Origin: Phycisphaeraceae bacterium
GTDB taxonomy: Bacteria; Planctomycetota; Phycisphaerae; Phycisphaerales; Phycisphaeraceae
Assembly (NCBI GenBank): GCA_963674705.1
Contig: OY771506.1
Coordinates: 1,600,001 to 1,664,000 of the forward strand
Direction of reading: 5' to 3'
DNA length: 64,000 bases
Made by a program: the position numbers and the translations under genes
The notes under the pieces: generated by a model
What the model was told of the DNA's origin: nothing
Seen by the model: only the letters and a program-made list of their open reading frames with translations
Database searches by the model: none
Shown: positions 15,170-64,000 of the stretch, piece after piece
Layout: each line of letters starts with the position of its first letter
Numbering within the stretch: the stretch's first letter is position 1

Positions 15170-15329
15170 TTGTGGTAAGTCTTTAAATATAGATAATGGG
15201 TAATGCACGCGGGCATCATTGATTTGTCCAGTGGCTTATAACTGGCGAATATATAATGTATTCTGCGGAGTCTGTGATGTTAGGCGCCTATAGTCACAAC
15301 GAGTTAATGCTAATCAATCATTCGGATTC

Positions 15330-16412
15330 GTGATGCAGGATATCAAGACACGCGAGTACGCTGTAGCCGAGTTGCTGGACCGGTCGGCGATGGCGTTGGC
15401 TGGCTACGCAACCGAGCAATTGGTCGGCCAATCCGCAAACGGTGCGCCCATATCAGATCGGTTTCACTTCTGGCAATCATATCTGGCATCGCGATTGCGC
15501 GACCTATCAGCGGCGGTGCACCTGGGACGGCCCGGGCTTTTCGCACGGCAGATACGCTGGTGTTGGGACGCACTGGCGGCGAAAGATCTAGATCCGACTG
15601 AATTCAAAGAGGCACTGGAAGTATTGGCTGGTGTGATCGAGACCGAGGTGGACAAAGTTGGACCGCGCATCGCTGATACGTACGTACGAGCCGCGATCGC
15701 ATCACTTGATCAGCTAAGCGACAACGGTTTGGCGTCGTTGCTGGATAGTTCGCAGCCCACCGGTAAGCTGGCCGCGTCGTATATGCTGGCGGTGCTGGAG
15801 GGTGACCGACGACGAGCGGCGGACCTGATCCACCAGGCGGTTGATGATGGGATGCCGGTGCGGCAGGTTTACCTGGATGTGCTGGCGCCGGCTTCGCGAG
15901 AGATAGGGCTTATGTGGCATCGTGACGAGGTCGGCATTGCCGAGGAGCACTTCGCCACCGCGACAACACAGATGGTGATGTCGCAGTTGTTACGGCGTTC
16001 ACCGGTCCCGGCGCTGAATGGTAAAACCGTGGTTGTGGCTTCGGTGATGGGGGATCGTCACGGGCTGGGGACACAGTTGGTGGCGGACTGTTTCGAGTTG
16101 GACGGTTGGCGAGTGGTTTATCTTGGCCCCGACATCCCCGGTCAGGAGTTGCCGCAGGCGCTCATAGATTTTCAGGCTGATCTTTTGTTGCTGTCCGCGA
16201 CCTTGTACACACACCTGCGTGCGTTGGAATCAACGATCGCTGCCCTGCAAGTCTTGGAAGAGACGCGGTCTGTGCCCGTGCTGGTTGGTGGACACGCGTT
16301 TGCGGAACAGCCGGACCTGGCCGAGCAGATCGGTGCGGATGATTACGCGGCGGACGCAGACGCTGCGGTATCGAAAGGTCGTAAACTTGTGGGTCTTGGA
16401 GAATCCTGTTGA
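15330..16412 (+). CDS. Cobalamin-binding (CarH-type photoreceptor-like) protein with an N-terminal all-helical domain and no DNA-binding HTH
   Basis: W-H-x8-E-H (WHRDEVGIAEEH = Wx9EH), DxHxxG (GDRHGLG), LSAT and VLVGG Rossmann motifs. Confidence 0.85.
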   Translation: MMQDIKTREYAVAELLDRSAMALAGYATEQLVGQSANGAPISDRFHFWQSYLASRLRDLSAAVHLGRPGLFARQIRWCWDALAAKDLDPTEFKEALEVLAGVIETEVDKVGPRIADTYVRAAIASLDQLSDNGLASLLDSSQPTGKLAASYMLAVLEGDRRRAADLIHQAVDDGMPVRQVYLDVLAPASREIGLMWHRDEVGIAEEHFATATTQMVMSQLLRRSPVPALNGKTVVVASVMGDRHGLGTQLVADCFELDGWRVVYLGPDIPGQELPQALIDFQADLLLLSATLYTHLRALESTIAALQVLEETRSVPVLVGGHAFAEQPDLAEQIGADDYAADADAAVSKGRKLVGLGESC

Positions 16413-16450
16413 GCCTACCTCGACCGGGGTGTTACGAGGCTTCATTTAGT

Positions 16451-17020
16451 ATGGCAAGCGAACGAACGGGTAATACCGGAGTGTTGCAACGGATCGCGGC
16501 AGGCGAAGCCGACGCGGTCAACGAGTGCCTGGATCGGTTCGGGGGCCTGGTCTGGTCACTTGCCCGACGGTTCTGCGCCAATCCAACCGATGCCGAGGAT
16601 GCGGTCCAAGAGGTCTTCACCGAAATCTGGACCAAGGCAGACCGCTACAAACCGGAAGTCGCCTCCGAAAAGACCTTCGTGACAATGCTGGCCCGTCGCA
16701 GGCTGATCGACATGTTGCGCAAGCGCGGTCGGGCGCCGCGCGAGACTGCGATCGAGGATGTGCAACTCGCTTCACAGCCGCAGCCTTCCACTATGGAACG
16801 GTCCGAGGAAGTCGAACGGGTGGAACGGGCAATTGATGAACTAAAGCCGATACAACGCGAGGCCCTGCGCATGGCGATATACGATAACTGCACGCACGCC
16901 CGCATCGCCGAAGTGATGGACATCCCGCTAGGTACCGTCAAGACCAGCATCCGCCGAGGTCTGCAGCGCGTGCGCGACGCGCTGAAGGTCGATGAAACCG
17001 GGGACGGCTCCGGCGCCTGA
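16451..17020 (+). CDS. ECF sigma-70 factor (SigK-like)
   Basis: Region 2 (DAEDAVQEVF..IW; RRRLIDMLR) and region 4 (THARIAEVMDIPLGTVKTSIRRGLQRVR); ATG at 16451 with GAGG upstream. Confidence 0.92.
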   Translation: MASERTGNTGVLQRIAAGEADAVNECLDRFGGLVWSLARRFCANPTDAEDAVQEVFTEIWTKADRYKPEVASEKTFVTMLARRRLIDMLRKRGRAPRETAIEDVQLASQPQPSTMERSEEVERVERAIDELKPIQREALRMAIYDNCTHARIAEVMDIPLGTVKTSIRRGLQRVRDALKVDETGDGSGA

Positions 17021-17220
17021 CCACGGTTGGATTCGTTTTTCTTGCAGTGCCTGTATACCCGGGATAATTCAGTCTGCACATGACGAATGGTTGTTGATGA
17101 GATAGCGGTGCTGTCTGTTTTTGTTGTTTGGCTTGTACGGAGATAATGGCATAATCTTTAGGATGGACAGCGGCCTATTCTGTGCTGCCCGGTATTAGAT
17201 ATCACGATCCGGAGGTGAAC

Positions 17221-45500: not shown

Positions 45501-45923
45501 CTAACTCCCGATCATCCAAAGCGCCAACACCCCGCGCAGCGACCACAACACCGTCCGCAACCAGTTACTTCTCACGAGCAACCGATGCGCAGCCGGATCA
45601 AAACCGCTTTCCAGTTTACGATGCTGCGGAACCTGCAAGAACGCTGTCGACAGCCAGAGCAACACGACCATCGCAAGACCGGCATTCGTCATCCACAAAT
45701 CAACCCCCGCCGGTGGTGCGATCAATAACCAAATCGCGGTCGCCAGTTCCACCAGCATCGGCGGACCAACGACCCACGTCGTCAGCCGTTGATGATGCTT
45801 TTCGTATTCTGTAAACCCTTCGCTGCCGACGCGCGCCATCAGCGGGTAATGTACGACCTGCACGAACCAGATCAGGCCCGTCATGTACAGCGTCGCGCCG
45901 GCGTGGATCAACAGGAGCATCAT
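45501..45923 (-). CDS. Conserved four-TM membrane protein (DUF1772-like) in the photolyase operon
   Basis: TGLIWFVQVVHYP, VVGPPMLVE, QVPQHRKL, NWLRTVLW; GGAG ribosome-binding site. Confidence 0.7.
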   Translation of the reverse strand: MMLLLIHAGATLYMTGLIWFVQVVHYPLMARVGSEGFTEYEKHHQRLTTWVVGPPMLVELATAIWLLIAPPAGVDLWMTNAGLAMVVLLWLSTAFLQVPQHRKLESGFDPAAHRLLVRSNWLRTVLWSLRGVLALWMIGS

Positions 45924-45938
45924 GGCGTCGCGCTCCTT

Positions 45939-46412
45939 TTAAGCAAACAAGTCGGCGAGCACCTTCTGGCGGTGCGCGAAGATCGCTTTGACATCGCGCT
46001 TGACAAACAGCGCGTTGATGATGGGCCCGCCCTTCGGCCGATACTCGACGCGGTCGCCGATCAGCGTCCCATCACCATCTTCTTTGAACCAGTGCGTGTG
46101 ATACCACAGATGGTACGGGCCCTTAAGCTGCTCGTCCGCAAACCGGTGCGGCGGGTCCCACTCCGCGATGCGCGTCCGCCACCTGATCGGCAAACCCTTG
46201 ATGCGGATCTTGTAATCGATCAGCGTGCCGACCTTCATCTCGATAGGCGTGGGCGTGATGATCTGAAATCGTACGCTGCTCGGTGTGATGCGCTCGAGAT
46301 TCGATGCATCACTGAAAAACTTGAACACCTCATCGATCGGCCGATCGATACGCTGCTCCGCGAGCACGAGTGTGTTCTTGCCATGTTTCTCGAATGTGAC
46401 GTTGTTGCTCAT
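45939..46412 (-). CDS. SRPBCC (START-fold) ligand-binding protein
   Basis: VFKFFSDASNLERITP, FADEQLKGPY..W.HTH.F, IFAHR; ATGA overlap with phr. Confidence 0.85.
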   Translation of the reverse strand: MSNNVTFEKHGKNTLVLAEQRIDRPIDEVFKFFSDASNLERITPSSVRFQIITPTPIEMKVGTLIDYKIRIKGLPIRWRTRIAEWDPPHRFADEQLKGPYHLWYHTHWFKEDGDGTLIGDRVEYRPKGGPIINALFVKRDVKAIFAHRQKVLADLFA

Positions 46413-47881
46413 TTGCTTTTCTTGATGGTGTCCAGCGCCGCAAGCGCCTTGTTGCGCGCTTCGCTGTGGTCGACGATTGGTTTGGGATAGTCTTTACCCA
46501 GCGTGATCCCCGCTGCTTTTAGAACCTCGGCCGGGGCTTTGGCAGGTTCGTGGATGTATTTATCTTCGAGTTTGGCAAGCTCAGGCACCCACTTGCGGAC
46601 ATACGCACCATCGGGGTCGAACTTCTTGCCTTGCAGCGTCGGGTTGAACACGCGGAAGTACGGCGCAGCATCAGCGCCGCAGCCGGCCGTCCACTGCCAG
46701 CCAAGCGTGTTGCTTGCAAGGTCCGCATCGACCAGCGTATCCCAGAACCACGTCGTGCCTTCCTGCCAACTGATGAGCAGGTCTTTGACGAGAAATGATG
46801 CCACGATCATCCGCACACGATTGTGCATCCAGCCGATGTGCCACAGCTCGCGCATCCCCGCATCGACGATCGGGTAGCCGCTCAAACCTTTCTGCCAGGC
46901 TTTGAGCGATTTGGCGTTCTTCTTCCACGGGAACTTTTTGAATTCCGGGCGCAGCGGGTTGTTGGCCGTATCGGGGAAGTGATAGAGCAGGTGGTAAGCA
47001 AACTCGCGCCAGCCGACCTCGCGCAGGTACGACCACGCGTTTTTACGGTTGCCGGCATTCATCCCGGCATTGATGCGTTTCGTCACGGCATGCCATATCT
47101 GGCGAGGGCCGATCTCGCCGAAGTGCAGGTGCGGACTTAGGCGTGATGTGCCGCGCACATCAGGCCGATCGCGGTCCTCATCGTAGTTGCGTATCGCTTC
47201 ATCTAGAAATTGTTCGAGTGCTTCGGCTGCGCCTTGTTCGCCGGGCGTCCACGCTTCACGTATCCCCTTCGCCCAATCGATCTTGGGCAGCAACTCAAGG
47301 TCATCCAGCTTAAGCGACTTGGGCCACTTCTTAGGTGACGGGATATCTCCGGGGCCTGGCACTTCGCATGCTTTCTCCGGCGCGGGCCGATCCGTGCATG
47401 TTTTCCAGAACGGTGTAAACACCTTGTAAGGATCACCCGCCTTCGTCTTCACTTCCCAAGGCTCAAACAGCAGCGACAGGTTAAAACTCTTCGCTTCAAT
47501 ATCATCATCACGCAACGCCGACTTGATCCGCTTATCCCGCTCGATCGCGGCCGGTTCGTAACAGCGGTCCCAATACACCGTGTCCGCCCCGGTCTCTTCG
47601 ATCAATTCACGCAACACTTCTTCGCAAGGCCCACTGCGGATAATCAGCCTGCTGCCGAGGTCTTTTAAAGATTTACTTATTGCCGCCAATGAATGATGAA
47701 GCCACCACCGACTCGCCGCTCCAGCGGGCCAGTCGCCCTCTTCTTCGGGTGAGTAAATATAAACCGGAACGATCGCCCCGTCCCCGGACGCATTCGCTGT
47801 GCGATCACACGCCGCCACCAGCGCCGGATTATCCGCCAGCCGAAGCCCCCGCCGAAGCCAGAGCAAAGTTGTCGCCGCCAT
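46409..47881 (-). CDS. phrB: Deoxyribodipyrimidine (CPD) photolyase
   Basis: WLRRGLRLADNPAL, TSRLSPHLHFGEI, WREF, GYPIVDAGMRELW..GWMHNRVRMIVASFL.KDL, DAAPYFRVFNP. Confidence 0.94.
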   Translation of the reverse strand: MAATTLLWLRRGLRLADNPALVAACDRTANASGDGAIVPVYIYSPEEEGDWPAGAASRWWLHHSLAAISKSLKDLGSRLIIRSGPCEEVLRELIEETGADTVYWDRCYEPAAIERDKRIKSALRDDDIEAKSFNLSLLFEPWEVKTKAGDPYKVFTPFWKTCTDRPAPEKACEVPGPGDIPSPKKWPKSLKLDDLELLPKIDWAKGIREAWTPGEQGAAEALEQFLDEAIRNYDEDRDRPDVRGTSRLSPHLHFGEIGPRQIWHAVTKRINAGMNAGNRKNAWSYLREVGWREFAYHLLYHFPDTANNPLRPEFKKFPWKKNAKSLKAWQKGLSGYPIVDAGMRELWHIGWMHNRVRMIVASFLVKDLLISWQEGTTWFWDTLVDADLASNTLGWQWTAGCGADAAPYFRVFNPTLQGKKFDPDGAYVRKWVPELAKLEDKYIHEPAKAPAEVLKAAGITLGKDYPKPIVDHSEARNKALAALDTIKKSK

Positions 47882-53243: not shown

Positions 53244-55388
53244 TTATTTTTCTGAATCTTCCGATTCGTTTGATTCTTCGTCCGTGCTTTCGTTCTCGTA
53301 GCGAGTCTTCATGTTGAACAGATGCTTCTCGAGCGTGCCGGGTTTGACGGCGTTTTCGACGATCTCCGTGCTCTTGTAGATGCCTTCGCCCATCTTCTCA
53401 AGAGATTGCACATCCGTCACGATCTCGGGCGTCAGGAACAGAAGTAGTTCCGTCTTGCTCTTGGTCTCCTGCTTACGACGGAACAACGCGCCCAGGCCGG
53501 GGATGTCACCCAGCAATGGGACCTTGCTTTCGGTCAGCGTGTACTGGTCTTCCATCAATCCGCCGATCACGATGGTTTGTCCGCCTTGGATGGCGACGCG
53601 TGTCTCTGCGAAACGCTTGGCGATGACCTGCGCGTCGAGCTGCTCGGAGATCGCGACCGTTCGGCCGCTGATCGTTGACAATTCCTGCGACACGTCGAGC
53701 GTGACGCGGTTGTCCGGGTTGATCTGAGGCGTGACGTCGAGGATCAGGCCGATCTCGCGGTACTCGATCGTGTTGATCGTGTTGCCTGCGTCGGTCTCGC
53801 GCGTGTTGGTGACGAACGGGAACTCTTCACCGATCAGGATGTTCGATGGCTGATTATCCGAAGCCAGGATGTAAGGCCGAGACACGACCTCCAGCTTGCC
53901 GACCTCCTGCAACAGGCGGATGTTCAACAGGAAGTCATCGGTATCCAGCAGGACCGCCTGGAAACCGCCGCTCGCCGCGGCGACACTGAAGTCCGTCAGC
54001 AGGCTGTCGACCGATCCGCCGACGTTGTAGAGTTCACCTTCGACGCCGACATCCAGTTGGTCATCGATAGAAACTTCAGCGATCAGCACGCGGATCAACA
54101 CTTGCGGCTGTTGTGTGTCGAGTGATTCCAGGATCGCCATGATTCGATCGTGATTGCGCTCAGGGGTGAGGATCATCAGTGTGTTGGTTGCCTCATCGGC
54201 GACCGTGGTCACCTGCCCGACCAGGCTGCCGGCGAACGAATCGCTGCTGGAACTGCTGTTGTTGTTATTATTATTATTGTTGTTGCGGCTGCGCGGATCG
54301 CGCGGGCTGTTGTTGCTGCTGGAGGATGAATTTTCATCAAACAGGTCGTTGAACGCCGTCTCCAGGTCGGTCGCGAGAATGTGCTTGACGTGGTACACCA
54401 GCACGGACTCGCGCGCGGTGGTGTCGGCATCGAGCTGGTTGATCACTTCCTCGACAACCGTCATCAACTCGGGCGATGCGCTGACAACAACACTGTTGGT
54501 TCGTTCGTCGGAGGCGGCGCTGACTTCGCGGCCCTGCACTTGTGTGTTGCTGTCATCATTGCCGCCCATCCCGGGCGGGCCGAAACGGCTGAAACGCCTC
54601 TGAATCGCCCGGCCGACTGCGGAATCCGCGCTCTCCCTATCCTCAAATGTCTCTTCTAATAATTGCGCGGTGTCTTCGGCGTCCGCGTACTGCAGTTGGA
54701 AGACACGCACCTGCGTCACCGATGAGATCGACTTGTCCACCGCATTGACGATCTGAACGATACGCTTGATGTTCGCCTCCGCGTCCGTGATGATCAGCGA
54801 GTTGCTCGCTTCATTCGCCGCCACCTCGGCGACCTCGGTATTGATCAGCGGGGAAAGGTCGTCAGAAAGACTCTTGGCATCGGCGTAACGGATCGGAACG
54901 ATCTGCGTGATGATCGTATCCGTGTTGCCGATCTGGTCCGGATCGTTGCCGTAGCGAACGGGGATCGCATCGAGCTTGGCATCCTGCAAGCGGACAATAC
55001 GAAGCAACCGATCGCGACGCACGGCCGTGTAACCTTTCTCCATCAGCAGCGTGTTGATCAGGTTGATCGCTTCATCGAGCGTGATCGGCTGACGGTTGAC
55101 CACCGTGATGCGCCCATCGACCGCGGTGTCGTTGACGACGATGAGCCCGGCCTGTTCGGACAGGTACTCGAGCACGGTCTGCAGCGGCGCGTCGCTGAAG
55201 TTCATCAGCAGGCCGTTGCCGTTGATCAACGGCGTGTTGGGCGCCTGCTCTTGCTGCTCGCTGAGCGTCAGGTTCGGCGCCTGCTCGTCTGCGGCAGTGT
55301 TGCCTTCATCCTGTGCGAAACTCACAGGCGCGACGGACAACACCGTGCATACAAACAGGGTCGTGGATAGTGTAAATAGACGTCTCAT
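53244..55388 (-). CDS. gspD: Type II secretion secretin GspD
   Basis: ATG at 55388 with AGGAG; signal peptide; MNFSDAPL (N0), repeated D.R/ATN.L/VV N-domains, QVLIRVLIAEV, LDVTPQIN, KVPLLGDIPGLGALFR, ELLLFLTPEIV. Confidence 0.92.
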   Translation of the reverse strand: MRRLFTLSTTLFVCTVLSVAPVSFAQDEGNTAADEQAPNLTLSEQQEQAPNTPLINGNGLLMNFSDAPLQTVLEYLSEQAGLIVVNDTAVDGRITVVNRQPITLDEAINLINTLLMEKGYTAVRRDRLLRIVRLQDAKLDAIPVRYGNDPDQIGNTDTIITQIVPIRYADAKSLSDDLSPLINTEVAEVAANEASNSLIITDAEANIKRIVQIVNAVDKSISSVTQVRVFQLQYADAEDTAQLLEETFEDRESADSAVGRAIQRRFSRFGPPGMGGNDDSNTQVQGREVSAASDERTNSVVVSASPELMTVVEEVINQLDADTTARESVLVYHVKHILATDLETAFNDLFDENSSSSSNNSPRDPRSRNNNNNNNNNSSSSSDSFAGSLVGQVTTVADEATNTLMILTPERNHDRIMAILESLDTQQPQVLIRVLIAEVSIDDQLDVGVEGELYNVGGSVDSLLTDFSVAAASGGFQAVLLDTDDFLLNIRLLQEVGKLEVVSRPYILASDNQPSNILIGEEFPFVTNTRETDAGNTINTIEYREIGLILDVTPQINPDNRVTLDVSQELSTISGRTVAISEQLDAQVIAKRFAETRVAIQGGQTIVIGGLMEDQYTLTESKVPLLGDIPGLGALFRRKQETKSKTELLLFLTPEIVTDVQSLEKMGEGIYKSTEIVENAVKPGTLEKHLFNMKTRYENESTDEESNESEDSEK

Positions 55389-55398
55389 AGTTGTACTC

Positions 55399-56067
55399 CT
55401 ACTGGCTCTCACGCTCCCGCCGTTCGCGGAGCCGGCGAAGAATGTCGGCTGTGCTTGAACCCGTATCGCTTGACTCGTTGCTTGAAGTTGTACTGTTATC
55501 AGAGCCCCGCTCTGATGTAGAGGAACCATATCCGTCCGACGAACCGTAGTAACCCGACATGCCTGATCCGTATGATCGGCTGGCAAGCGCGCCGGTCAGG
55601 TCGTACCCGATCTGGATATTGCGCTGCTCATCACCGACCTGATACTCGACAACGTCGTGGCTGATCGCACCCAGCTTTCCGCTGGCAAAGGTTTCGTCCT
55701 CGCCTACGCGGAAGACCTCGCGCGTCTGCATGTTCTCGAAGAACGCCAACCAGCGTTCGCCTGTGTAACTGACGCCGATGAACCGGTACGCACGGTCCGG
55801 ATCCTCCGGCTCGGGCTGCGGCTCATATTGCTGCTCAGGTTGTTCCTGGCCTGCTTCACCCGGAGCCGGTTCAACACGCGGGGCGCGACGCTGGCTCGGT
55901 ACGAACAGGTTGCCGTTGATCACCTTCTCCATCGTTTCCTTGGAGACTTCCTTGGCCGTCCATGCCGAAGCATCGATCTTTTCTTCCTGCGCCGACGCCG
56001 AAGCACTCAGCATCAACAGCGAAGACAGGCAGCACATCGCGATAATCATGTTTGACTTTGTTTTCAT
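55399..56067 (-). CDS. Hypothetical T2SS accessory protein (GspC-like position)
   Basis: N-terminal hydrophobic segment, NLF, FIGVSY...AFF.......RVGE pattern; lies between gspM and gspD. Confidence 0.55.
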   Translation of the reverse strand: MKTKSNMIIAMCCLSSLLMLSASASAQEEKIDASAWTAKEVSKETMEKVINGNLFVPSQRRAPRVEPAPGEAGQEQPEQQYEPQPEPEDPDRAYRFIGVSYTGERWLAFFENMQTREVFRVGEDETFASGKLGAISHDVVEYQVGDEQRNIQIGYDLTGALASRSYGSGMSGYYGSSDGYGSSTSERGSDNSTTSSNESSDTGSSTADILRRLRERRERESQ

Positions 56068-56597
56068 GATGCGCCCTCCTCTTCGCTCAACACCAGCGTC
56101 GACACCGTCAGCCGAAGCGTCAGGCGGTTGCTGCTGTCGTCACGCCTGGCGATGTCGCATGACAACACCGCCAACGGGATCTGCGCTTGCTGGACCTTCT
56201 GGAGGAACTTTGCGACCGAACTTAATTCGCCCGTTGCGGTCAGGCTGAAACGCACTTCCGTAAACGGCGGGCTGCTCAGGTTGCCGCCGGCGCTGAGGTT
56301 GTTCAGCGTTAATCCGGAACTTTCCGCCACCCGGCTGACCTGGCCCTGCACGTTCAATCGCGCCGATGCCGGGCTGCTCCACAACCCCGCGAGCTTACGC
56401 TCTTCCCAGCGAGAGAGGATCAGTTCACGGTTATCCACCAGCACCATGTCTTCATCAATCTGCTGCTCAAGCGTGTCCGCTTGTTCGCGCAGATCGCTCA
56501 GGTACACCTGCATCGGCGAGATCAGCAAACGGTCGGCTACGAAGAAACCAACGATCAGCGCGACCGCCCAGGCCAGTAATCGCTCGCGTTTAGACAT
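56064..56597 (-). CDS. GspM/PilO-like inner-membrane platform protein
   Basis: MSKRERLL + TM + coiled coil + ATGELSSVAKFL ferredoxin-like domain. Confidence 0.7.
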   Translation of the reverse strand: MSKRERLLAWAVALIVGFFVADRLLISPMQVYLSDLREQADTLEQQIDEDMVLVDNRELILSRWEERKLAGLWSSPASARLNVQGQVSRVAESSGLTLNNLSAGGNLSSPPFTEVRFSLTATGELSSVAKFLQKVQQAQIPLAVLSCDIARRDDSSNRLTLRLTVSTLVLSEEEGAS

Positions 56598-57922
56598 CAG
56601 CGGCCCCCCTTTCCAGCGATATAGTTGAACACGATTTCAAATCGTACTTCGCCCCGGTCGTTCTGTGTCTGTGCCGAGTCACGAAGCGCAACGCTGCTTA
56701 AACTCTCCGACGCCTGCATCGTCCTCAAAAACTCGAGCATCTGGCTGCGCGTCTCGGCCCGGCCCTGTAGCGAACCGCTCTTATCCGCGTTCAACCGGAA
56801 CTCTGTCAGCCGTAATTCACTTCGCTGCGGCACGCATTCGGTCAGCACCTGCATGCACGAAAGCATGTCCACGCGCTTATCAAACCACGGCGCGGATTCA
56901 TCCAGCCGCGACTTCACCTCGCTGAGCATCTCAACATCCGACGCCATCCCCGCCGCCGTTGCCTGCAGCGTTGATAACCGATGCTCTCGGCTCCACCACA
57001 ACCCACCGACCGCAAGAATCAACAGAACCACCAGCGCCGCAACACCCACGCCGATCCGCTGCGTCTTGGTCAGGCCCCTGCCCGTTTCCTTCGAGGCTCG
57101 ACAACGCAGCAGGTCCAGCATGTCGTGCTGTTGTGCACGCCGCCGCATCGCATCGATCACAGATTCATCGATCACGGATGTCGAACCACCCGCTACACCG
57201 TTCAGGTACGAGGCGATGCTGTGCGGATCGATCCCCGTTGCCGGATCGGATGCCAGCACGAGTTCGCTTTGATTGCTTGATAGCTGCGGGTCGGACGCGA
57301 TGTTGGCCGTGATCGCACGCGCCGCACCGGCCGGGTCGTTATCGAGCGTATCGCACAGCGAACGCAATCCGACCGTCCTGCCGTCCCGCACCAATGCCAA
57401 CTCAGCCATCGGCGGATCGATACGCACAAGCGTCGTGTCCGCCTGCTTCTCGTTGACATATGCCTGCGCCGTCACGTGGATCGCAACCGGCGTCAGCCCT
57501 GCTTCTGCAAGCGTCTTGGTCAGGCTCTCCAGTTTCTTGCGCGTCGTCACGCCGATCAACACTTCGCTCGCCCCGCTGCTTCGGCTGATCGTATAGTCGG
57601 CAACCAGGTTGCCCGCGTCCGTCGCATAGTCCCGGCTGACGCGCATCTTTACCGCGCCTGCCGCCACGTTCGTATCGGTCGACGGCACGCTCAATCGCTG
57701 CGTCAACACCCACGATACCGGCACGCCCACCACCACGCGCCCCAGCGACAAACGGTGCGAACCCAACTGGTTTTTCAGTAACGCGCCCAACGTCGCCGCA
57801 TCCATGTCGGACCAGCGACCGGGCAGATCGATCTTGACTGGCTGCGCATCACCCGGCGCCGCGGCGACCACACGGTGCTCGTCGATCAACATCACAAGAT
57901 GCTTCTTCGCATCACGTGCCAC
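56597..57922 (-). CDS. GspL/PilM-PilN-like platform protein
   Basis: Cytoplasmic actin-like region (VVVGVP), MLDLL + TM, PilN-like periplasmic domain (LQGRA). Confidence 0.7.
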   Translation of the reverse strand: MARDAKKHLVMLIDEHRVVAAAPGDAQPVKIDLPGRWSDMDAATLGALLKNQLGSHRLSLGRVVVGVPVSWVLTQRLSVPSTDTNVAAGAVKMRVSRDYATDAGNLVADYTISRSSGASEVLIGVTTRKKLESLTKTLAEAGLTPVAIHVTAQAYVNEKQADTTLVRIDPPMAELALVRDGRTVGLRSLCDTLDNDPAGAARAITANIASDPQLSSNQSELVLASDPATGIDPHSIASYLNGVAGGSTSVIDESVIDAMRRRAQQHDMLDLLRCRASKETGRGLTKTQRIGVGVAALVVLLILAVGGLWWSREHRLSTLQATAAGMASDVEMLSEVKSRLDESAPWFDKRVDMLSCMQVLTECVPQRSELRLTEFRLNADKSGSLQGRAETRSQMLEFLRTMQASESLSSVALRDSAQTQNDRGEVRFEIVFNYIAGKGGR

Positions 57923-59415
57923 TAATGCACCCCCGATCCGTATTGTTCAGATACTTCGTCCACCGTTGCTCCTTGACGTAAGGCAACTCTAATCTCCGGA
58001 TCGATCGGCCAACCCAGGTCCGTGATGTCCTGCAGGTACACCACACGCGGGCCCTCCACTTCTTCGCCGTTGCTCGACAACGTGTCGATCACCACGCGGT
58101 AACGCACGAACCCTCGGCCGTCCCCACTCACCGCCAGGATGTCCGCGCCAAACTGAAAACTGCGCGTCGTCAGCAGATTCGCCGCCGCGACCGCTTTCTC
58201 TTTATCTAACGCGTCGACCAGCCATAACATCGATTCCTGATCGGTGTCGCGCGCCGAAACGATCTTCTGCCCGTCGCCCTCTTCAAGCCCCGGCAACAAA
58301 TCCAGCACCTCCGCCGGCGCCGTGTTCACATTGATCAAGCCACGCTGCACGTTCTGGTTGTTCGCGGTGACTTTGTCCTGTAGCTTCGCGAACTCTTCAT
58401 CCGTCAGCTTCAGCTTGATCGCAAAGTCGAGCGCGTTCTGGAACGGCCGGCCCGTCAGGACCTGCGGCGACACCTCGTTGAACCGCTTTTCTTCAAGCTC
58501 ATCTCGCAACAACTGGAACAACTCGCCGCCCTGATTCAGGTTTGTCCGGTCCTCGCCGTCAACGGTCTTGTTCGGCTCGACGCTGTACACCGTCAGGTAC
58601 GGATACAAACCCACGTCCAGCGAGCCGTCCGCGTTATCACTCGGCGGGGTTGCCGCAGCGTCGTTCTCGTTGTCATCAAGTACGCCGTTGCGGTTTGTGT
58701 CTTCGCCGTAAAGAATCAGTTCATCCACATCACGCACCAGCAGCAACTCTTCGAGTGTCTCGAATCGGCTGTTCTTCGCTTCGTAACCGATGCGTTGCGC
58801 CAGGTAATAGTCGGACTCCGCGCCGCCGTCTCGTATCTCGTCGTCGCCATCCGCCCAGTCGGCGATCGCGTTACAGATTTCGCTGTTCAAGCCGATCAAC
58901 CCGGATAGCGCCTCGGGGGGCGTGACACTCACGTTCAGCCGCGTGTTCTCCGGCACCACGCCGTAGGTCGGCTCTTCATCCGTCGTAAAGTCCTGCGCGA
59001 TCACCCAGAACAATCCGTTGCCCAGGGGTTCTGCTTGTACTTCAAGAAAATCTATCGCCGGGTTCTCACCCGCATCGATCGAGTTCTGCAAATCCGCCTT
59101 GATCGCCTCGATCACCCCCATTGCGATCATCCGCGCCTGCACCTGTGAGACATTGTTCCCCGCAGTGACCGCTTCGGTCTGCATCTGTCGAGCAAACACC
59201 AACGCCATCGCCACCAGGAACACGATCATCGCCAACACCACCACCAGCGCCGCACCACGTTGACGCTTTATAGTGGTCAGGCGCTCTACCCCCCTCTCCC
59301 CTCGGGAGAGGGCCGGGGTGAGGGCCGAATTCCTTTTGCACGCTATCAACCAATTTATTCGGGTGCCACACATTGACTGCGCAGCAGCAATGTGTGTTGA
59401 GTCGTTCCATCGCAC
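57922..59415 (-). CDS. gspK: Minor pseudopilin GspK; the leader carries REP insertions and the start is uncertain
   Basis: RQRG|AALVVVLAM prepilin site, ENTRLNV, AIADWAD.D, FETLEELLLVRDV, INVNTAPAEVL. Confidence 0.9.
   Translation of the reverse strand: MRWNDSTHIAAAQSMCGTRINWLIACKRNSALTPALSRGERGVERLTTIKRQRGAALVVVLAMIVFLVAMALVFARQMQTEAVTAGNNVSQVQARMIAMGVIEAIKADLQNSIDAGENPAIDFLEVQAEPLGNGLFWVIAQDFTTDEEPTYGVVPENTRLNVSVTPPEALSGLIGLNSEICNAIADWADGDDEIRDGGAESDYYLAQRIGYEAKNSRFETLEELLLVRDVDELILYGEDTNRNGVLDDNENDAAATPPSDNADGSLDVGLYPYLTVYSVEPNKTVDGEDRTNLNQGGELFQLLRDELEEKRFNEVSPQVLTGRPFQNALDFAIKLKLTDEEFAKLQDKVTANNQNVQRGLINVNTAPAEVLDLLPGLEEGDGQKIVSARDTDQESMLWLVDALDKEKAVAAANLLTTRSFQFGADILAVSGDGRGFVRYRVVIDTLSSNGEEVEGPRVVYLQDITDLGWPIDPEIRVALRQGATVDEVSEQYGSGVH
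59289..59326. repeat. REP family A copy inside the gspK leader
   Basis: CCCCCCTCTCCCCTCGGGAGAGGGCCGGGGTGAGGGCC, identical to 53016-53053. Confidence 0.85.
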
Positions 59416-59446
59416 ACTTTGCCCTTCGGGTCAAAGTGTGGCACCC
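59361..59446. repeat. Second palindrome family (E) inverted doublet at the gspJ-gspK junction
   Basis: GGGTGCCACACATTG..CAATGTGTG and CACACTTTG-CCC-TTCG-GGT-CAAAGTGTGGCACCC; partial copy at 60706-60730. Confidence 0.7.
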
Positions 59447-59472
59447 CATGCTGGTAAGTAAAAGTGTCACGC

Positions 59473-60138
59473 TCATCTTCCCACCCCCGACAGGATACTG
59501 TCCGAGCGCGTCCCGGCCGGCATCGCGATGATCTGTGTGAACATCAGGTCATCAGAGTTTGAATACTTCGAATCCTCATCCGGATGATACAACGTGATAC
59601 GCACCGCCAGCGGCAGCGTGTTGTCCTGCTGGGTTGAGTCCCAGTCATCGACCCAGTCCGACCCGTCGCTGTATTCAACATTCCAGCCGGTCAGTCCGCG
59701 TGCAAGTATCTGCTCCTCCGGGTCCGTTGTCGCCGGTGCGAGCAGATTCGTCGTGATATAACGCACAAGCATGAACGTATCGCTATCGTCCGTATCTTCT
59801 GCCAGTTCAAGACTGACGTTGATCAAATCAGACAGCTTGCCGTCCGGCGGGAGGAAGCTGTTGGCGGTGGTAAAGCTGATCACGTCCTGCTGGCTGTCGT
59901 CTTCACCAAGGAATCCACCGGCCATTTCACCGGTCGGCGGCGGAACGGATTGCAGATCACGCCGCACCAGTTCCAGCGCCAGGCTCAACGTGCGGTCCTT
60001 GCCGATCGTGCTCGAAGCCTTGTCGCGCGTCGTCGTCGCAATCATCAGGCTCGCGTAGACCGTCGCCGCCAGGATCGCGGTGATCGCGATCGCCAGGATC
60101 AGCTCAATCAACGTAAATGCACGGTTTCGAGGCCTCAT
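59473..60138 (-). CDS. gspJ: Minor pseudopilin GspJ
   Basis: RA|FTLIELILAIAI, LVRRDLQS, W.DDWDS....LPLAVRITL. Confidence 0.88.
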   Translation of the reverse strand: MRPRNRAFTLIELILAIAITAILAATVYASLMIATTTRDKASSTIGKDRTLSLALELVRRDLQSVPPPTGEMAGGFLGEDDSQQDVISFTTANSFLPPDGKLSDLINVSLELAEDTDDSDTFMLVRYITTNLLAPATTDPEEQILARGLTGWNVEYSDGSDWVDDWDSTQQDNTLPLAVRITLYHPDEDSKYSNSDDLMFTQIIAMPAGTRSDSILSGVGR

Positions 60139-60767
60139 GTATCACTTTCGTCATGCACGGCTGTGGTCAGCGTGATCGTCTGGGGTCGGCCGCGCCGCTC
60201 CCAACTCACCGTCATCGTGAGTTTCCGCACGCTCGGGTCGAGCCATTCCTCGACCTGCAGCACCCAGGTATAACGCCCCGACTGTCCTGTTTCTTCGTCC
60301 TCAACTTCAAATTCTCCGGTGTCGTCCCCGAACTGCCAGCTCTCATCCAGCAGGATCTCGTTGATCTTGTTTTCCGCCAGCCGCGCCGCCTCCGCCCGGT
60401 CCTGTGCCAACCCGCCGATATGCGTCGCCGTATTGAGCGCCCCCATCAACACCGGCAACACGATCGCCACCAATAACAACGCCGCCAAAACTTCGAGTAA
60501 TGAGAATCCTCGTTGAGTATGCCTTCGCCTTACCCCCTCTCCCCCTGGGAGAGGGCCGGGGTGAGGGCCAACAACCTTGGAGTTACTTACTGCAATTACT
60601 TCTTCTGATACAGCAGATTCTTTTTCTGCACGATGGGTAAAGTCTGTACACCCAATCAACCCGGCCCTCACCCTAGCCCTCTCCCGAGGGGAGAGGGGAC
60701 CGGAGTTGACTGCGCAGCAGCAAAGTGTGCTTTCAAACTCACTCTTCATCTCAGAGGCGCAGCGCAT
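60135..60767 (-). CDS. gspI: Minor pseudopilin GspI with an 87-residue leader containing a REP doublet
   Basis: QRG|FSLLEVLAALL; LAENKINE; AGGAGG six nt before ATG at 60767. Confidence 0.85.
   Translation of the reverse strand: MRCASEMKSEFESTLCCCAVNSGPLSPRERARVRAGLIGCTDFTHRAEKESAVSEEVIAVSNSKVVGPHPGPLPGGEGVRRRHTQRGFSLLEVLAALLLVAIVLPVLMGALNTATHIGGLAQDRAEAARLAENKINEILLDESWQFGDDTGEFEVEDEETGQSGRYTWVLQVEEWLDPSVRKLTMTVSWERRGRPQTITLTTAVHDESDT
60533..60698. repeat. REP family A inverted doublet inside the gspI coding sequence
   Basis: Arms at 60533-60569 and 60663-60698 around an AT-richer spacer. Confidence 0.85.
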
Positions 60768-61296
60768 TGAGCACCTCCTGGGCCTTCAGCCCCTTCACTT
60801 CGCTCTTACCCATGATCCGGTAGCGCTCGGTCGCCGCTTCGCAGGTAATCACAACGAACCGATCATCCTGCTCGACGATCACCGTGCCCGGCGTCACCAG
60901 GCCCGTCGGCTCGAAGTAGAGCATGATCTCGTTGTAGCCGCTCTTTTCGACATCCGTATCGATCTCGATCGTGTTGTTCCACTGAACCGACTCGACACCC
61001 GTGCCGACGGTTTGTTCGTAGCCTTCATCACCGATGTGCTCGATGTACGCTTCGCGCTGCTCAAGGTTGATTACTACGCGGTACGTATTCGCTTCGTGGA
61101 TCGCGCGCGTCTGCGCCTGCTGCGTCAAGGTGAACAGTTCTACCGCAGTGTTATCCAGCGCCGCCCTCCGCGCAAAACCGCTGAGTGCGGGTGTCGCCAG
61201 TGTGGTGAGAGTGGCGATAAGCACCAGCACGAGGATCAGCTCAAGCAGAGTGAAGCCGAGAGCCGATCTGCGGGTTGTACGCGTGCGTGGGTTCAC
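60751..61296 (-). CDS. gspH: Minor pseudopilin GspH
   Basis: LG|FTLLELILVLVLI, AQTRAI, FEPTG. Confidence 0.85.
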   Translation of the reverse strand: MNPRTRTTRRSALGFTLLELILVLVLIATLTTLATPALSGFARRAALDNTAVELFTLTQQAQTRAIHEANTYRVVINLEQREAYIEHIGDEGYEQTVGTGVESVQWNNTIEIDTDVEKSGYNEIMLYFEPTGLVTPGTVIVEQDDRFVVITCEAATERYRIMGKSEVKGLKAQEVLNALRL

Positions 61297-61733
61297 TTGG
61301 TTGTTGTCCAGTTGGCGATGTCGTCGTTACCCCCGGCCCGTTGATCGGGGCCGTAGGAATACAGATCGAATCCCTCTTCGTTGTGCGTGCCCGGGCATCG
61401 GTACTGCCATTCGTTACCCCACTGGTCCACCGGCACAACGTCCGATTCCAGGTATGGACCGGACCAGCCCTCGGCATCGGAAGGCTCTTCGATCAGCGCT
61501 TCCAAGCCCTGCTGCGTCGTCGGGTACGAACCGACCTGCAGTTCATACGTGCCCAGCGCGGTCTTGAAGTCGCTTAGTTGTGTCTTTGCGGCGGTGATCC
61601 GCGCTTTCTCGGATTGGCCGGCAAAGCGCACGCCGACGATCGCCGACAACACGGCAAGGATGACCAGCACCAGCAGCAGTTCGAGAATGCTGAAACCACG
61701 GCTGCGTGTTTGACGTTTGTTCTTATTCATCAT
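61293..61733 (-). CDS. gspG: Major pseudopilin GspG
   Basis: RG|FSILELLLVLVIL, YPTTQQGLEAL, WSGPYL, DQWGNEWQY, DLYSYGPD....DDIANW. Confidence 0.93.
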   Translation of the reverse strand: MMNKNKRQTRSRGFSILELLLVLVILAVLSAIVGVRFAGQSEKARITAAKTQLSDFKTALGTYELQVGSYPTTQQGLEALIEEPSDAEGWSGPYLESDVVPVDQWGNEWQYRCPGTHNEEGFDLYSYGPDQRAGGNDDIANWTTTK

Positions 61734-61743
61734 GATTAAACCT

Positions 61744-62958
61744 CTACTGAATCGCGTCCCAAAGATCGAACACCGGTAACAGCATACCGATCACGATCGT
61801 CCCCACGAGCGTCGCCATGACAAACAGCAACGCCGGCTCTGCCAACGACACCAGCATCCGCAGGCGACGGTCCAACTCTTGTTCATTATCTACACCCAAC
61901 CGATCGAGCTCCGCGCTTAGCTGCCCGGACTCTTCCGCCACCGCGATCACTTCCAAAACCGACGGCGGGAACAACCCCGGGCACGTCGCCAAGCCACGCG
62001 CCAAACTGTCGCCGCGCTGCACGCGGTCGATCGATTCATCCAAAGCGTCGGAAAGGATCTGGTTGCCGATCGCTTCACGCGCCACGCGCAATGACATGAT
62101 CAACGGCACACCCGCGCCGAGCAGCGTCCCCAGCATCCGGCAAAAACGCACGAGTGCGAACCTCGCCGTCACCGTGCCGACGCCCGGCACCTTGAGTATC
62201 CATTTATCCCTGAATCGTCGTCCGCCCGGCGTCGCCAGCGCACGCTTGCCGACGATTGCCAGCAAAGCCGCGATGACAAGGATGAAAGGCCCGTACTCAC
62301 GCACCGCAAGACTCACGCCCTGGATGATCCGTGTGATCAAAGGCAAATCCTGGCCGAACTGCTCAAAGATCCCCGAAAACTTCGGGATAAACCACGACAG
62401 CAAGAACGTCACCACGCCCGTCGCGACACACATCAGCACGATCGGGTAGATCATCGCGCCGGTCACCCGGCTTTTAAGGTCACGCTCGCGCGACATGAAC
62501 TCGGCGATCTGACGGAGTACGACATCCAGGAAGCCGCCCGTCTCGCCGGCACGCACCATCGCGACATGCACCGGCGCGAACACGCGGTCGTGCTTGCTCA
62601 TCGCTTCTGCGAGCGGTGTGCCGTCCGACACCTCGTCGCGCACGTTTTGCCAAAGCGACTTCGCCGCCTGTGATTTTGATTCTCTTCCCAGAATTTCAAG
62701 CGCCCTGCTTAACGGCACACCCGCCGCAAGCAAGCCGGAAAGCTGACGCAGAAACTGATGCACCTGGGCCGGACGCACACGACCGGTCGTCGCACGCTGC
62801 AAGCCTGATTGACTCGCCTCGTCCTGTTCATCGACGCTGACGGGCATCAGGCCGCGCTGCTCGATCGCCTCGGCCGCAGCCGTCGCGTTCGCCGCGTCGA
62901 TCACGCCGCTGCGCTTCTTGCCTGTGGATTCAAGTCCGGTATAAGCGAACACGGGCAT
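61744..62958 (-). CDS. gspF: T2SS inner-membrane protein GspF
   Basis: RQLSGLLAAGVPL, MVRAGETGG.L, AMIYP, AEESGQL, EP...LLPVF. Confidence 0.93.
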   Translation of the reverse strand: MPVFAYTGLESTGKKRSGVIDAANATAAAEAIEQRGLMPVSVDEQDEASQSGLQRATTGRVRPAQVHQFLRQLSGLLAAGVPLSRALEILGRESKSQAAKSLWQNVRDEVSDGTPLAEAMSKHDRVFAPVHVAMVRAGETGGFLDVVLRQIAEFMSRERDLKSRVTGAMIYPIVLMCVATGVVTFLLSWFIPKFSGIFEQFGQDLPLITRIIQGVSLAVREYGPFILVIAALLAIVGKRALATPGGRRFRDKWILKVPGVGTVTARFALVRFCRMLGTLLGAGVPLIMSLRVAREAIGNQILSDALDESIDRVQRGDSLARGLATCPGLFPPSVLEVIAVAEESGQLSAELDRLGVDNEQELDRRLRMLVSLAEPALLFVMATLVGTIVIGMLLPVFDLWDAIQ

Positions 62959-62963
62959 CGTCG

Positions 62964-64000
62964 TCAGCCTTTACCTTTCGTGTCGCCGCCGTAGACATGT
63001 TGCTCATCCTTGGTAACACGCAAGACTTCCTGAACCGTCGTCAGGCCTTCACGCACCAGACGCCAGCCGTCTTCGCGCAGGCTCTGCATCCCTTCGATGG
63101 TCGCCACGCGTCGGACCTCGCGCCCCGAGGCCGTGCCGGTGGCTAGCGCGCGTAATTGTTCGCTCATCGGCATCATCTCGAACACGCCCCGCCGGCCCTG
63201 GTACCCCGTGCCGTTGCACTCCCGGCAACCCGTGCCGACGTACAACTCGCTGGGCAGGTTACCGTTGTACTTCTCGATCAACGCCTGCGCATCACTCTCC
63301 GCCATACGCTGCTTACAACGCGGGCAGATCAACCGCACCAAGCGCTGCGCCACCACCATCTCAAGCGAAGACGCAACCAGGTAAGGCTCGACGCCCATGT
63401 CGATCAATCGCGGGATCGCGCCCGGCGCATCGTTCGTATGCAGCGTGGAGAAAACAAGATGGCCAGTCAACGATGCCTGCACCGCGATCTCCGCCGTCTC
63501 GCGGTCGCGGATTTCACCGATCAAGACAACGTCCGGGTCGTGACGCAAAATCGACCGCAAGCCACGCGCGAACGTCAACCCGGTTTTCGTATCGACCTGG
63601 ATCTGGTTCACGCCGTCCAGGTGATACTCGATCGGGTCTTCGATCGTGACGATCTTGCGGTCGCTGGTATTGATCTGCGAAAGCCCCGCATACAGCGTCG
63701 TCGTTTTACCGCTACCGGTCGGGCCCGTGACTAACACGATGCCGTGCGGAAGCGCGAGGATTTCTTCGAATTTGCCCAGATGCATCTTGGACATGCCAAG
63801 CCCATTGAGCCCGACCAATGAGCCGTGTCGATCGAGGATACGCAGCACGACCGCTTCGCCGTGCAGCATCGGGATGATCGATACACGCACATCGACTTCA
63901 CGTCCTGAGACACGCAGCTTGATGCGCCCGTCCTGCGGCAGGCGCTTCTCTGCGATATCCAAATGGCTTAGGATCTTAAGACGCGAAACGATCGCCGGCT
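62964..64000 (-). CDS. gspE: T2SS ATPase GspE (5' end outside the window)
   Basis: DIAEKRLPQDGR, GPTGSGKTTTLY, TIEDPIEY, LRHDPDVVLIGEIRD, TLHTND, CxxC...CxxC. Confidence 0.95.
   Translation of the reverse strand, partial: PAIVSRLKILSHLDIAEKRLPQDGRIKLRVSGREVDVRVSIIPMLHGEAVVLRILDRHGSLVGLNGLGMSKMHLGKFEEILALPHGIVLVTGPTGSGKTTTLYAGLSQINTSDRKIVTIEDPIEYHLDGVNQIQVDTKTGLTFARGLRSILRHDPDVVLIGEIRDRETAEIAVQASLTGHLVFSTLHTNDAPGAIPRLIDMGVEPYLVASSLEMVVAQRLVRLICPRCKQRMAESDAQALIEKYNGNLPSELYVGTGCRECNGTGYQGRRGVFEMMPMSEQLRALATGTASGREVRRVATIEGMQSLREDGWRLVREGLTTVQEVLRVTKDEQHVYGGDTKGKG

Follow-up and report, generated by a model that had tools for sequence, protein, structure and literature searches.

The outputs known for B12 photoreceptors are DNA, for CarH and LitR, a repressor, for AerR, and a fused enzyme, for AbDPcob. 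In relatives whose photochemistry has been described, green light splits the Co-C bond and the dark dimer falls apart (PMC10979010), and a signature of the type GxxW, EH, GxxH and GxxxP has been validated for the light response, with the His after the Trp serving the bis-His light state (PMC11796333). The closest known system to the one considered here is LitR-LitS of Streptomyces (ECF19s4; PMC11519972, PMC7826278 supplement), in which an adenosyl-B12 (AdoB12) photoreceptor gene likewise lies beside that of an ECF19-type sigma factor. LitR carries a MerR-type helix-turn-helix (HTH) and controls litS transcription by binding DNA, and the LitS subgroup ECF19s4, which adjoins MerR-type LitR, mostly lacks an anti-sigma factor, one being present in 21.82% (PMC7826278 supplement).

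Mycobacterial SigK and its anti-sigma factor RskA provide a second point of comparison. According to PMC7509140, RskA is abnormal in 23% of cases with a Cys-less SigK, an 81-aa RskA stub inhibits SigK by itself, a Cys-less SigK lacking RskA shows high activity in Nocardia, and RskA can activate SigK too. These data supply a background rate of RskA loss as well as a reason for another brake, since a Cys-less SigK that is highly active alone makes it likely that an RskA-less sigma of this kind needs one.

Here we analyse a two-gene locus in a 64,000-nucleotide stretch of a Phycisphaeraceae genome (GCA_963674705.1, contig OY771506.1, positions 1,600,001 to 1,664,000), hereafter the window, which encodes a predicted photocobilin followed by an ECF sigma factor, sigma-1. 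Our main reading, to which we assign a probability of roughly 0.4, is that the photocobilin acts as a soluble, light-released inhibitor of the sigma factor; that it exerts control of some kind over the sigma we regard as reasonably probable. The features of the window are as follows.

15170..15329, + strand: AT-rich intergenic stretch, 39% GC, likely site of the operon promoter
15330..16412, + strand: predicted photocobilin gene, 360 aa from GTG; photoglobin, B12 cap and B12 Rossmann domains, without a DNA-binding domain
15348..15752, + strand: putative photoglobin (phycocyanin-like globin) domain, about residues 7-141, from profile and structure matches
15915..15950, + strand: W196-H197-x8-E206-H207 adenosyl-binding motif, from sequence
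16053..16070, + strand: D242-x-H244-xx-G247 cobalt-ligating motif, from sequence
16451..17020, + strand: ECF sigma gene (sigma-1), SigK/LitS-like, 189 aa, without the sigma-4 Cys pair
17100..17116, + strand: terminator-like hairpin after the sigma-1 gene, at chance level (1 found against 1.5 expected)
46409..47881, - strand: CPD photolyase gene, without a sigma-clade promoter upstream and hence not counted among the system's parts

The photocobilin frame has an alternative ATG start at 15333, which would give 359 aa. The ATG of sigma-1 at 16451 lies 38 nt past the photocobilin stop on the same strand and no anti-sigma gene lies 3' of it, in agreement with the original prediction; the next gene, 161 nt on, encodes a protein of 885 aa that matches no Pfam family. 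The + strand of 15170..15329 gives no match to a sigma-70 promoter and, as an ECF candidate, just TTGTCC-N16-CGAA, a degenerate site with a matrix score of 1.6. A XerD-type recombinase gene lies upstream of the pair, and because the flanking genes differ in two congeners, conservation is limited to the pair itself. Elsewhere in the window, at 53244-63962 on the - strand, ORF translations suggest a type II secretion-like cluster (secretin, pseudopilins, inner-membrane platform, ATPase).

The 360-aa protein contains B12-binding_2 (residues 153-220) and B12-binding (233-347) domains by Pfam, and Pfam, NCBIfam and profile searches found no MerR-type HTH in it. The Wx9EH motif, the His directly after its Trp, DxHxxG and the lack of an HTH, on which the original prediction had been built, are all seen in this ORF, 15330-16412. 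W196, E206, H207 and H244 are invariant in 100/100 aligned relatives, so the motifs are not chance occurrences, while H197, conserved in 59/100, supplies the His after the motif Trp that CarH and LitR require for bis-His ligation; the GxxW, EH, GxxH and GxxxP light-response signature is present in full. The closest solved relatives by sequence are SasPcob structures 8J2W/8J2X (E 2e-28), to whose C-terminal globin residues 57-105 give a second, short match. An AlphaFold model (pLDDT 95) places the B12 half on 8J2W with Z 27.5 and rmsd 1.7 over 208 aligned residues, the photocobilins 8J2W/8J2X/8J2Y ranking best among both sequence and structure matches. A PduO-type adenosyltransferase is encoded in the genome, in which no CobA/BtuR enzyme was found. 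Judged from sequence and model, the protein is a photocobilin with the globin first, not a bare CarH module: the AdoB12 signature of the predicted CarH-type photoreceptor held up, but its photoglobin domain had been missed. Two other identities were rejected, a CarH/LitR repressor (HTH absent; NCBIfam CarH score 86 against a cut-off of 400) and the MtbC-like methyltransferase corrinoid protein by which some sources label it (scores 49-63 against cut-offs of 215-370; Wx9EH present). A second HTH-less B12-fold protein (G000:C1:3379647-3380255), without Wx9EH, is found across the family.

The photocobilin likely binds AdoB12 and likely senses light. It is quite improbable that the module instead reports AdoB12 supply or redox state, an alternative that draws on the light response being read from motifs, on the different outputs of apo and holo photocobilin even in the dark (PMC10979010) and on the redox response of SigK relatives (PMC7826278 supplement); against it stand the validation of the signature for light (PMC11796333), the photolyases among the neighbours, and the light induction of ECF18/19 relatives, two LitS proteins (PMC7826278 supplement).

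A profile of the N-terminal domain built from 105 sequences matches photocobilin globins at E 7e-11 to 5e-8 (8J2W: 7e-11) and, next, allophycocyanins at E 0.004. When this domain was modelled alone, the top Foldseek rows were a photocobilin and phycobiliproteins (E 0.02, TM about 0.6), all matches lying at E above 0.001. With the published SasPcob numbering taken as sequence position + 6 (anchored on Trp61 and Glu71), the bilin-binding Asp270 aligns with Y51, the phycocyanin Cys (the Cys/Thr position) with W48, and the conserved globin Trp296 with W77. Among the 105 relatives, the W48 position is Trp in 87, and the Y51 position is Asp in 12. AbPcob also lacks the Asp and binds bilin weakly (PMC10979010), which indicates that the missing residue lowers bilin binding and leaves family descent intact. 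Bilin binding here thus appears to be weak or absent, in a pocket that looks degenerate or filled. Two-colour sensing through a bilin is accordingly disfavoured, the pocket residues being changed and no PF01126 heme oxygenase having been found in the genome. We infer instead that the globin serves in protein contact.

For sigma-1, the best named NCBIfam model is SigK, at 119.6 bits and below its cut-off of 226, in line with the predicted SigK-like sigma without an RskA partner. The sigma-4 cysteine pair, which does not define ECF19 (PMC7826278 supplement), is absent from sigma-1 and from the sigmas of its clade, and a redox-controlled disulfide of the kind found in M. tuberculosis SigK was rejected on that ground. 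Of the condition that was to refute the proposal, a cognate RskA elsewhere in the genome, only half holds. The genome holds a single RskA_C gene (G000 2346049-2346870), and it belongs outside the window to an operon of fasciclin, sigma-2 and rskA (G000:C1:2346049-2348654) preceded by a perfect TGAATCC-N16-CGAA promoter (G000 2348627, - strand); this RskA thus has a sigma of its own, sharing 45% identity with sigma-1 against 30% for the next paralog. Region 2 and region 4.2 of both sigmas are near the clade consensus. Full-length photocobilin occurs in only 2/10 congeners, G005 and G009, both with the same split between photocobilin-sigma-1 at one place and fasciclin-sigma-2-rskA at another. 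The photocobilin-sigma-1 order is common to these three genomes at 67-70% sigma identity and with different flanks. On the sigma tree, the copies of sigma-1 group in a separate clade with support 100, without an established sister link to sigma-2, and an RskA-like anti-sigma gene lies at +1 in 69 clade members, sigma-2 included and sigma-1 not. The RskA of the sigma-2 operon could act on sigma-1 in trans.

The suggested check of neighbourhood conservation gave the same gene order in these two further genomes of the genus and other orders across the phylum. In a sample of 401 planctomycete genomes, in which kin are not independent and a few of the 37 photocobilin hits are partial matches, the sigma is present in 30/37 genomes with a photocobilin match and in 19/364 without. 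It lies within about 1 kb in 13/37 other photocobilin loci and is absent from the fetched stretch of 24/37. The 176 metagenome loci were represented by the best 80, which reduce to 66 distinct ones; a full sigma match is present in 27 of these and missing from 39, many of which are short. Since the linkage is found in every orientation, it does not merely reflect co-transcription. Where the photocobilin directly follows the sigma, start and stop overlap as ATGA in 9/21 loci (not de-duplicated), an arrangement typical of RskA. Neither sigma-photocobilin nor RskA-photocobilin fusions were found, which is weak evidence; the three longer proteins are all histidine-kinase fusions, other long open frames being GC-rich run-ons. 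A match between sigma and photocobilin distances (r 0.82, 52 pairs) is expected from shared descent and was discarded as support.

The state of RskA varies among these loci. Of the 13 sigma-linked loci, four have a full RskA between the two genes, six only an N-terminal RskA piece of 87-106 aa without a membrane helix, and three none; the 27 metagenome sigma loci divide into 18 without RskA, 5 with a stub, 3 with full RskA and 1 at a contig end. Stubs without a Pfam family have stayed open as reading frames next to the sigma and photocobilin genes of separate lineages (L033:4221-4481, L002:4154-4471, L036:7664-7942 and others). These pieces speak for positive control, in which the photocobilin in its light state would bind the N-terminal domain of RskA or strip it off, the distant RskA providing it in trans here, or would co-activate the sigma. 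RskA pieces inhibit SigK and, having no sensor of their own, need a releasing factor, RskA can also activate SigK (PMC7509140), and all three genomes of the genus retain RskA; because so many loci keep an inhibitory stub, the role of antagonist fits them as well as that of inhibitor. We nevertheless consider positive control unlikely, for many loci and genomes have no RskA piece (18 of the 27 distinct metagenome sigma loci, for example) and would leave an antagonist without its target.

Another alternative is that the photocobilin signals through a different partner, either an unlinked repressor, as in AerR-CrtJ, or a kinase, with the sigma merely a co-inherited light-stress gene and sigma-1 under RskA in trans or under transcriptional control. 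AerR-type HTH-less B12 photoreceptors do act on separate transcription factors, no sigma lies near 24/37 photocobilin loci, LitS-type ECF19 sigmas under transcriptional control often lack an anti-sigma (PMC7826278 supplement), and Cys-less SigK loses RskA easily (PMC7509140). Moreover, the module has other outputs: 7/37 photocobilin genomes lack this sigma, and in two of the seven the module is joined to a histidine kinase. Such fusions were observed at L198:6004-8457, L200:6004-8469 and in P0116-P0118, all from genomes without this sigma, with a receiver-like tail in L198 and L200. However, no recurring repressor or kinase was found among 113 neighbouring genes of 21 loci, and the two MerR_1 genes of this genome stand in unrelated contexts. 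A separate partner would also leave unexplained both the near confinement of RskA loss to photocobilin genomes and the photocobilin in the ATGA-coupled position of an anti-sigma, and on balance we find this alternative doubtful.

That RskA loss goes with the B12 protein was evaluated in every one of the 49 phylum-sample genomes that carry the sigma, together with the stronger matches among the 75 genomes of the class sample, leaving out contig-edge cases and a divergent sigma-2 row from G009. At least one sigma without full RskA occurs in 24/55 photocobilin genomes against 2/37 others (Fisher p 4e-5, uncorrected), and 31/55 photocobilin genomes retain full RskA. G798 was counted as having full RskA, as the full gene lies upstream; its locus, L239, is a tandem of degenerate sigma, long RskA, intact sigma and RskA stub. 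RskA_C was not found genome-wide in 18/18 searched photocobilin genomes outside the genus without full RskA in their loci (87-100% complete, except G715 at 86%). The sigma tree calls for about 14 switches between RskA states. An independent-pairs test was not significant (median p 0.5-1, too few pairs) and a rough binomial count of losses gave p 0.05-0.07, so that the association, once corrected for kinship, is only borderline. The sigma occurs without RskA and without a photocobilin in two genomes, G456 (90% complete) and G743 (84%); in the G456 counter-example (L218), the clade sigma lies beside a desaturase, an amine oxidase and a cyclopropane synthase cluster. In five loci of one family (L075, L082, L086, L091, L097), an RskA-less sigma is followed by what reads as a 1,100-1,300-aa tricorn-like protease gene, and all five genomes have a photocobilin elsewhere.

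The promoter motif TGAATCC-N16-CGAA was derived from sigma-fasciclin intergenic regions, and in 120 loci outside the training set a spacer of 16 yields 71 sites against 2-12 at 13 other spacers. For the clade as a whole it has the ATC at -35 and the CG at -10 of ECF19/ECF18 (SigK-like) promoters; sigma-1, sigma-2 or both may read it. A genome-wide scan gave 9 exact sites where about 6 were expected, with the top matrix match inside coding sequence, and was rejected as a list of the regulon; only sites upstream of genes seen again at other loci were kept as candidates. In this genome the motif precedes the fasciclin-sigma-2-rskA operon, a DUF2867-type oxidoreductase gene and a gene for a membrane protein whose sequence reads as having a redoxin-like half; in G005/G009 it precedes fasciclin (both genomes), the DUF2867-type oxidoreductase, SOUL and a DUF378-like gene. 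The neighbours in 21 loci include fasciclin, SOUL, lipocalin, DUF378, DUF2867, CIA30, a cyclopropane synthase cluster and peroxiredoxin-like genes. The photolyase operon proposed as a target did not survive this comparison, as its best matrix score in 570 bp upstream is 0.8, against 17.9-32.5 for training sites; the fasciclin and DUF2867 genes appear to be better targets. In the window, the photolyase forms one run with an SRPBCC protein and a small membrane protein (45501-47881, - strand), and the motif argues against this sigma as its regulator. Photolyase genes also occur in several other photocobilin loci.

No good motif site was found before the photocobilin-sigma-1 operon. An autoregulatory site lies upstream in 40/69 loci with full RskA, 10/17 with a stub and 6/33 with none (counts not de-duplicated). 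It is very improbable that the photocobilin belongs to the regulon but regulates nothing, serving as a B12 or tetrapyrrole sink beside a redundant duplicate, sigma-1. At several loci it merely stands third in an autoregulated sigma-rskA operon; here, by contrast, it lies upstream of the sigma without a sigma promoter, three genomes share this order despite sigma divergence and different flanks, and the adenosyl-specific motif is invariant.

Having no HTH, this photocobilin must act on the sigma either by touching it directly or via a further protein. Under the light-released inhibitor reading, the dark, AdoB12-bound photocobilin would take the place of RskA and hold sigma-1 inactive, illumination would free it through photolysis, and freed sigma-1 would switch on a predicted photo-oxidative stress regulon; both the contact and the sign of dark inhibition are inferred. 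The contact might have existed first alongside RskA and later alone, and a single such contact is the simplest account of the series of full RskA, stub and none. In favour of this reading are the complete photoreceptor signature, the photocobilin best matches and the PduO adenosyltransferase, together with the co-occurrence, the linkage in any orientation, RskA loss, the ATGA position, the likely need of an RskA-less, Cys-less sigma for another brake and the fasciclin, SOUL, lipocalin, DUF378, DUF2867, cyclopropane synthase and photolyase neighbours. Against it weigh the full RskA that this genome and two congeners keep beside sigma-2 and that may hold sigma-1, the non-significant kinship-aware tests, G456 and G743 together with the 23% of abnormal RskA in Cys-less SigK, the retention of full RskA in 31/55 genomes and the lack of the sigma in 7/37, the many loci that keep a soluble RskA stub, which would suit an antagonist equally well, and the autoregulatory promoter that is usually missing without RskA, unlike in ordinary sigma/anti-sigma operons. 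A more elaborate version, tentative at best, holds that the bilin-less photoglobin is the sigma-binding surface of a direct light-released anti-sigma that repeatedly replaced RskA across Planctomycetota, and that the genus duplicated its sigma, one copy going to RskA and one to the photoreceptor, to give two inputs to one regulon.

Both proteins are members of known families, and B12-dependent light control of such a sigma is itself known; the wiring would be new. The original prediction had suspected as much, and in the open-licence literature we found no paper on a B12 photoreceptor that lacks an HTH and targets an ECF sigma, but the pairing as such is known from LitR-LitS, by transcriptional control. 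The text searched in the PMC7826278 supplement contains neither 'B12' nor 'cobalamin', and the consulted portions of PMC10979010 and PMC8717448 make no mention of ECF sigma linkage. If the proposed mechanism holds, an ECF sigma gated directly by a B12 photoreceptor would represent a new output for such receptors and a novel type of anti-sigma factor, would give stand-alone photocobilins a physiological role, would point to light as an input for SigK-type sigmas, the stimuli of which PMC9861118 calls obscure, and would amount to a two-gene, membrane-free green-light transcription switch.

The B12 cap, Rossmann domain and photoglobin are shared with the photocobilins SasPcob and AbDPcob (8J2W, 8J2X, 8J2Y; PMC10979010) and the photoglobin-B12 family (PMC8717448), as are Wx9EH, E/DxH and the conserved globin Trp. 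Unlike in SasPcob, the globin is N-terminal, Asp270 is replaced by Tyr and the Cys/Thr position by Trp, and a His follows the motif Trp, as in CarH, where SasPcob has Gln; since PMC8717448 describes photoglobins both before and after the B12 domains, the architecture is known. With Thermus CarH the protein shares W-H-x8-E-H and the Co-ligating His, but it has no MerR HTH and scores far below the CarH cut-off. AerR/PpaA, which acts on CrtJ/PpsR (PDB 7TE2), is likewise a stand-alone HTH-less B12 photoreceptor that works by binding a transcription protein, yet its partner is a repressor, not a sigma, and it has no globin. Mycobacterial SigK-RskA, with its fasciclin regulon (MPT70/MPT83; PMC7509140), is alike in the SigK model match, in the fasciclin-sigma-RskA cassette and in the truncation of RskA to its N-terminal domain in Cys-less sigmas, as seen in this clade, and differs in that here there is no sigma-4 disulfide, no RskA at the locus and a B12 protein as constant neighbour. 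Finally, the LitS promoter GCATCCR-N15-CVGAAD (PMC11519972) is near-identical to TGAATCC-N16-CGAA, whereas LitR works through the HTH that the photocobilin lacks.
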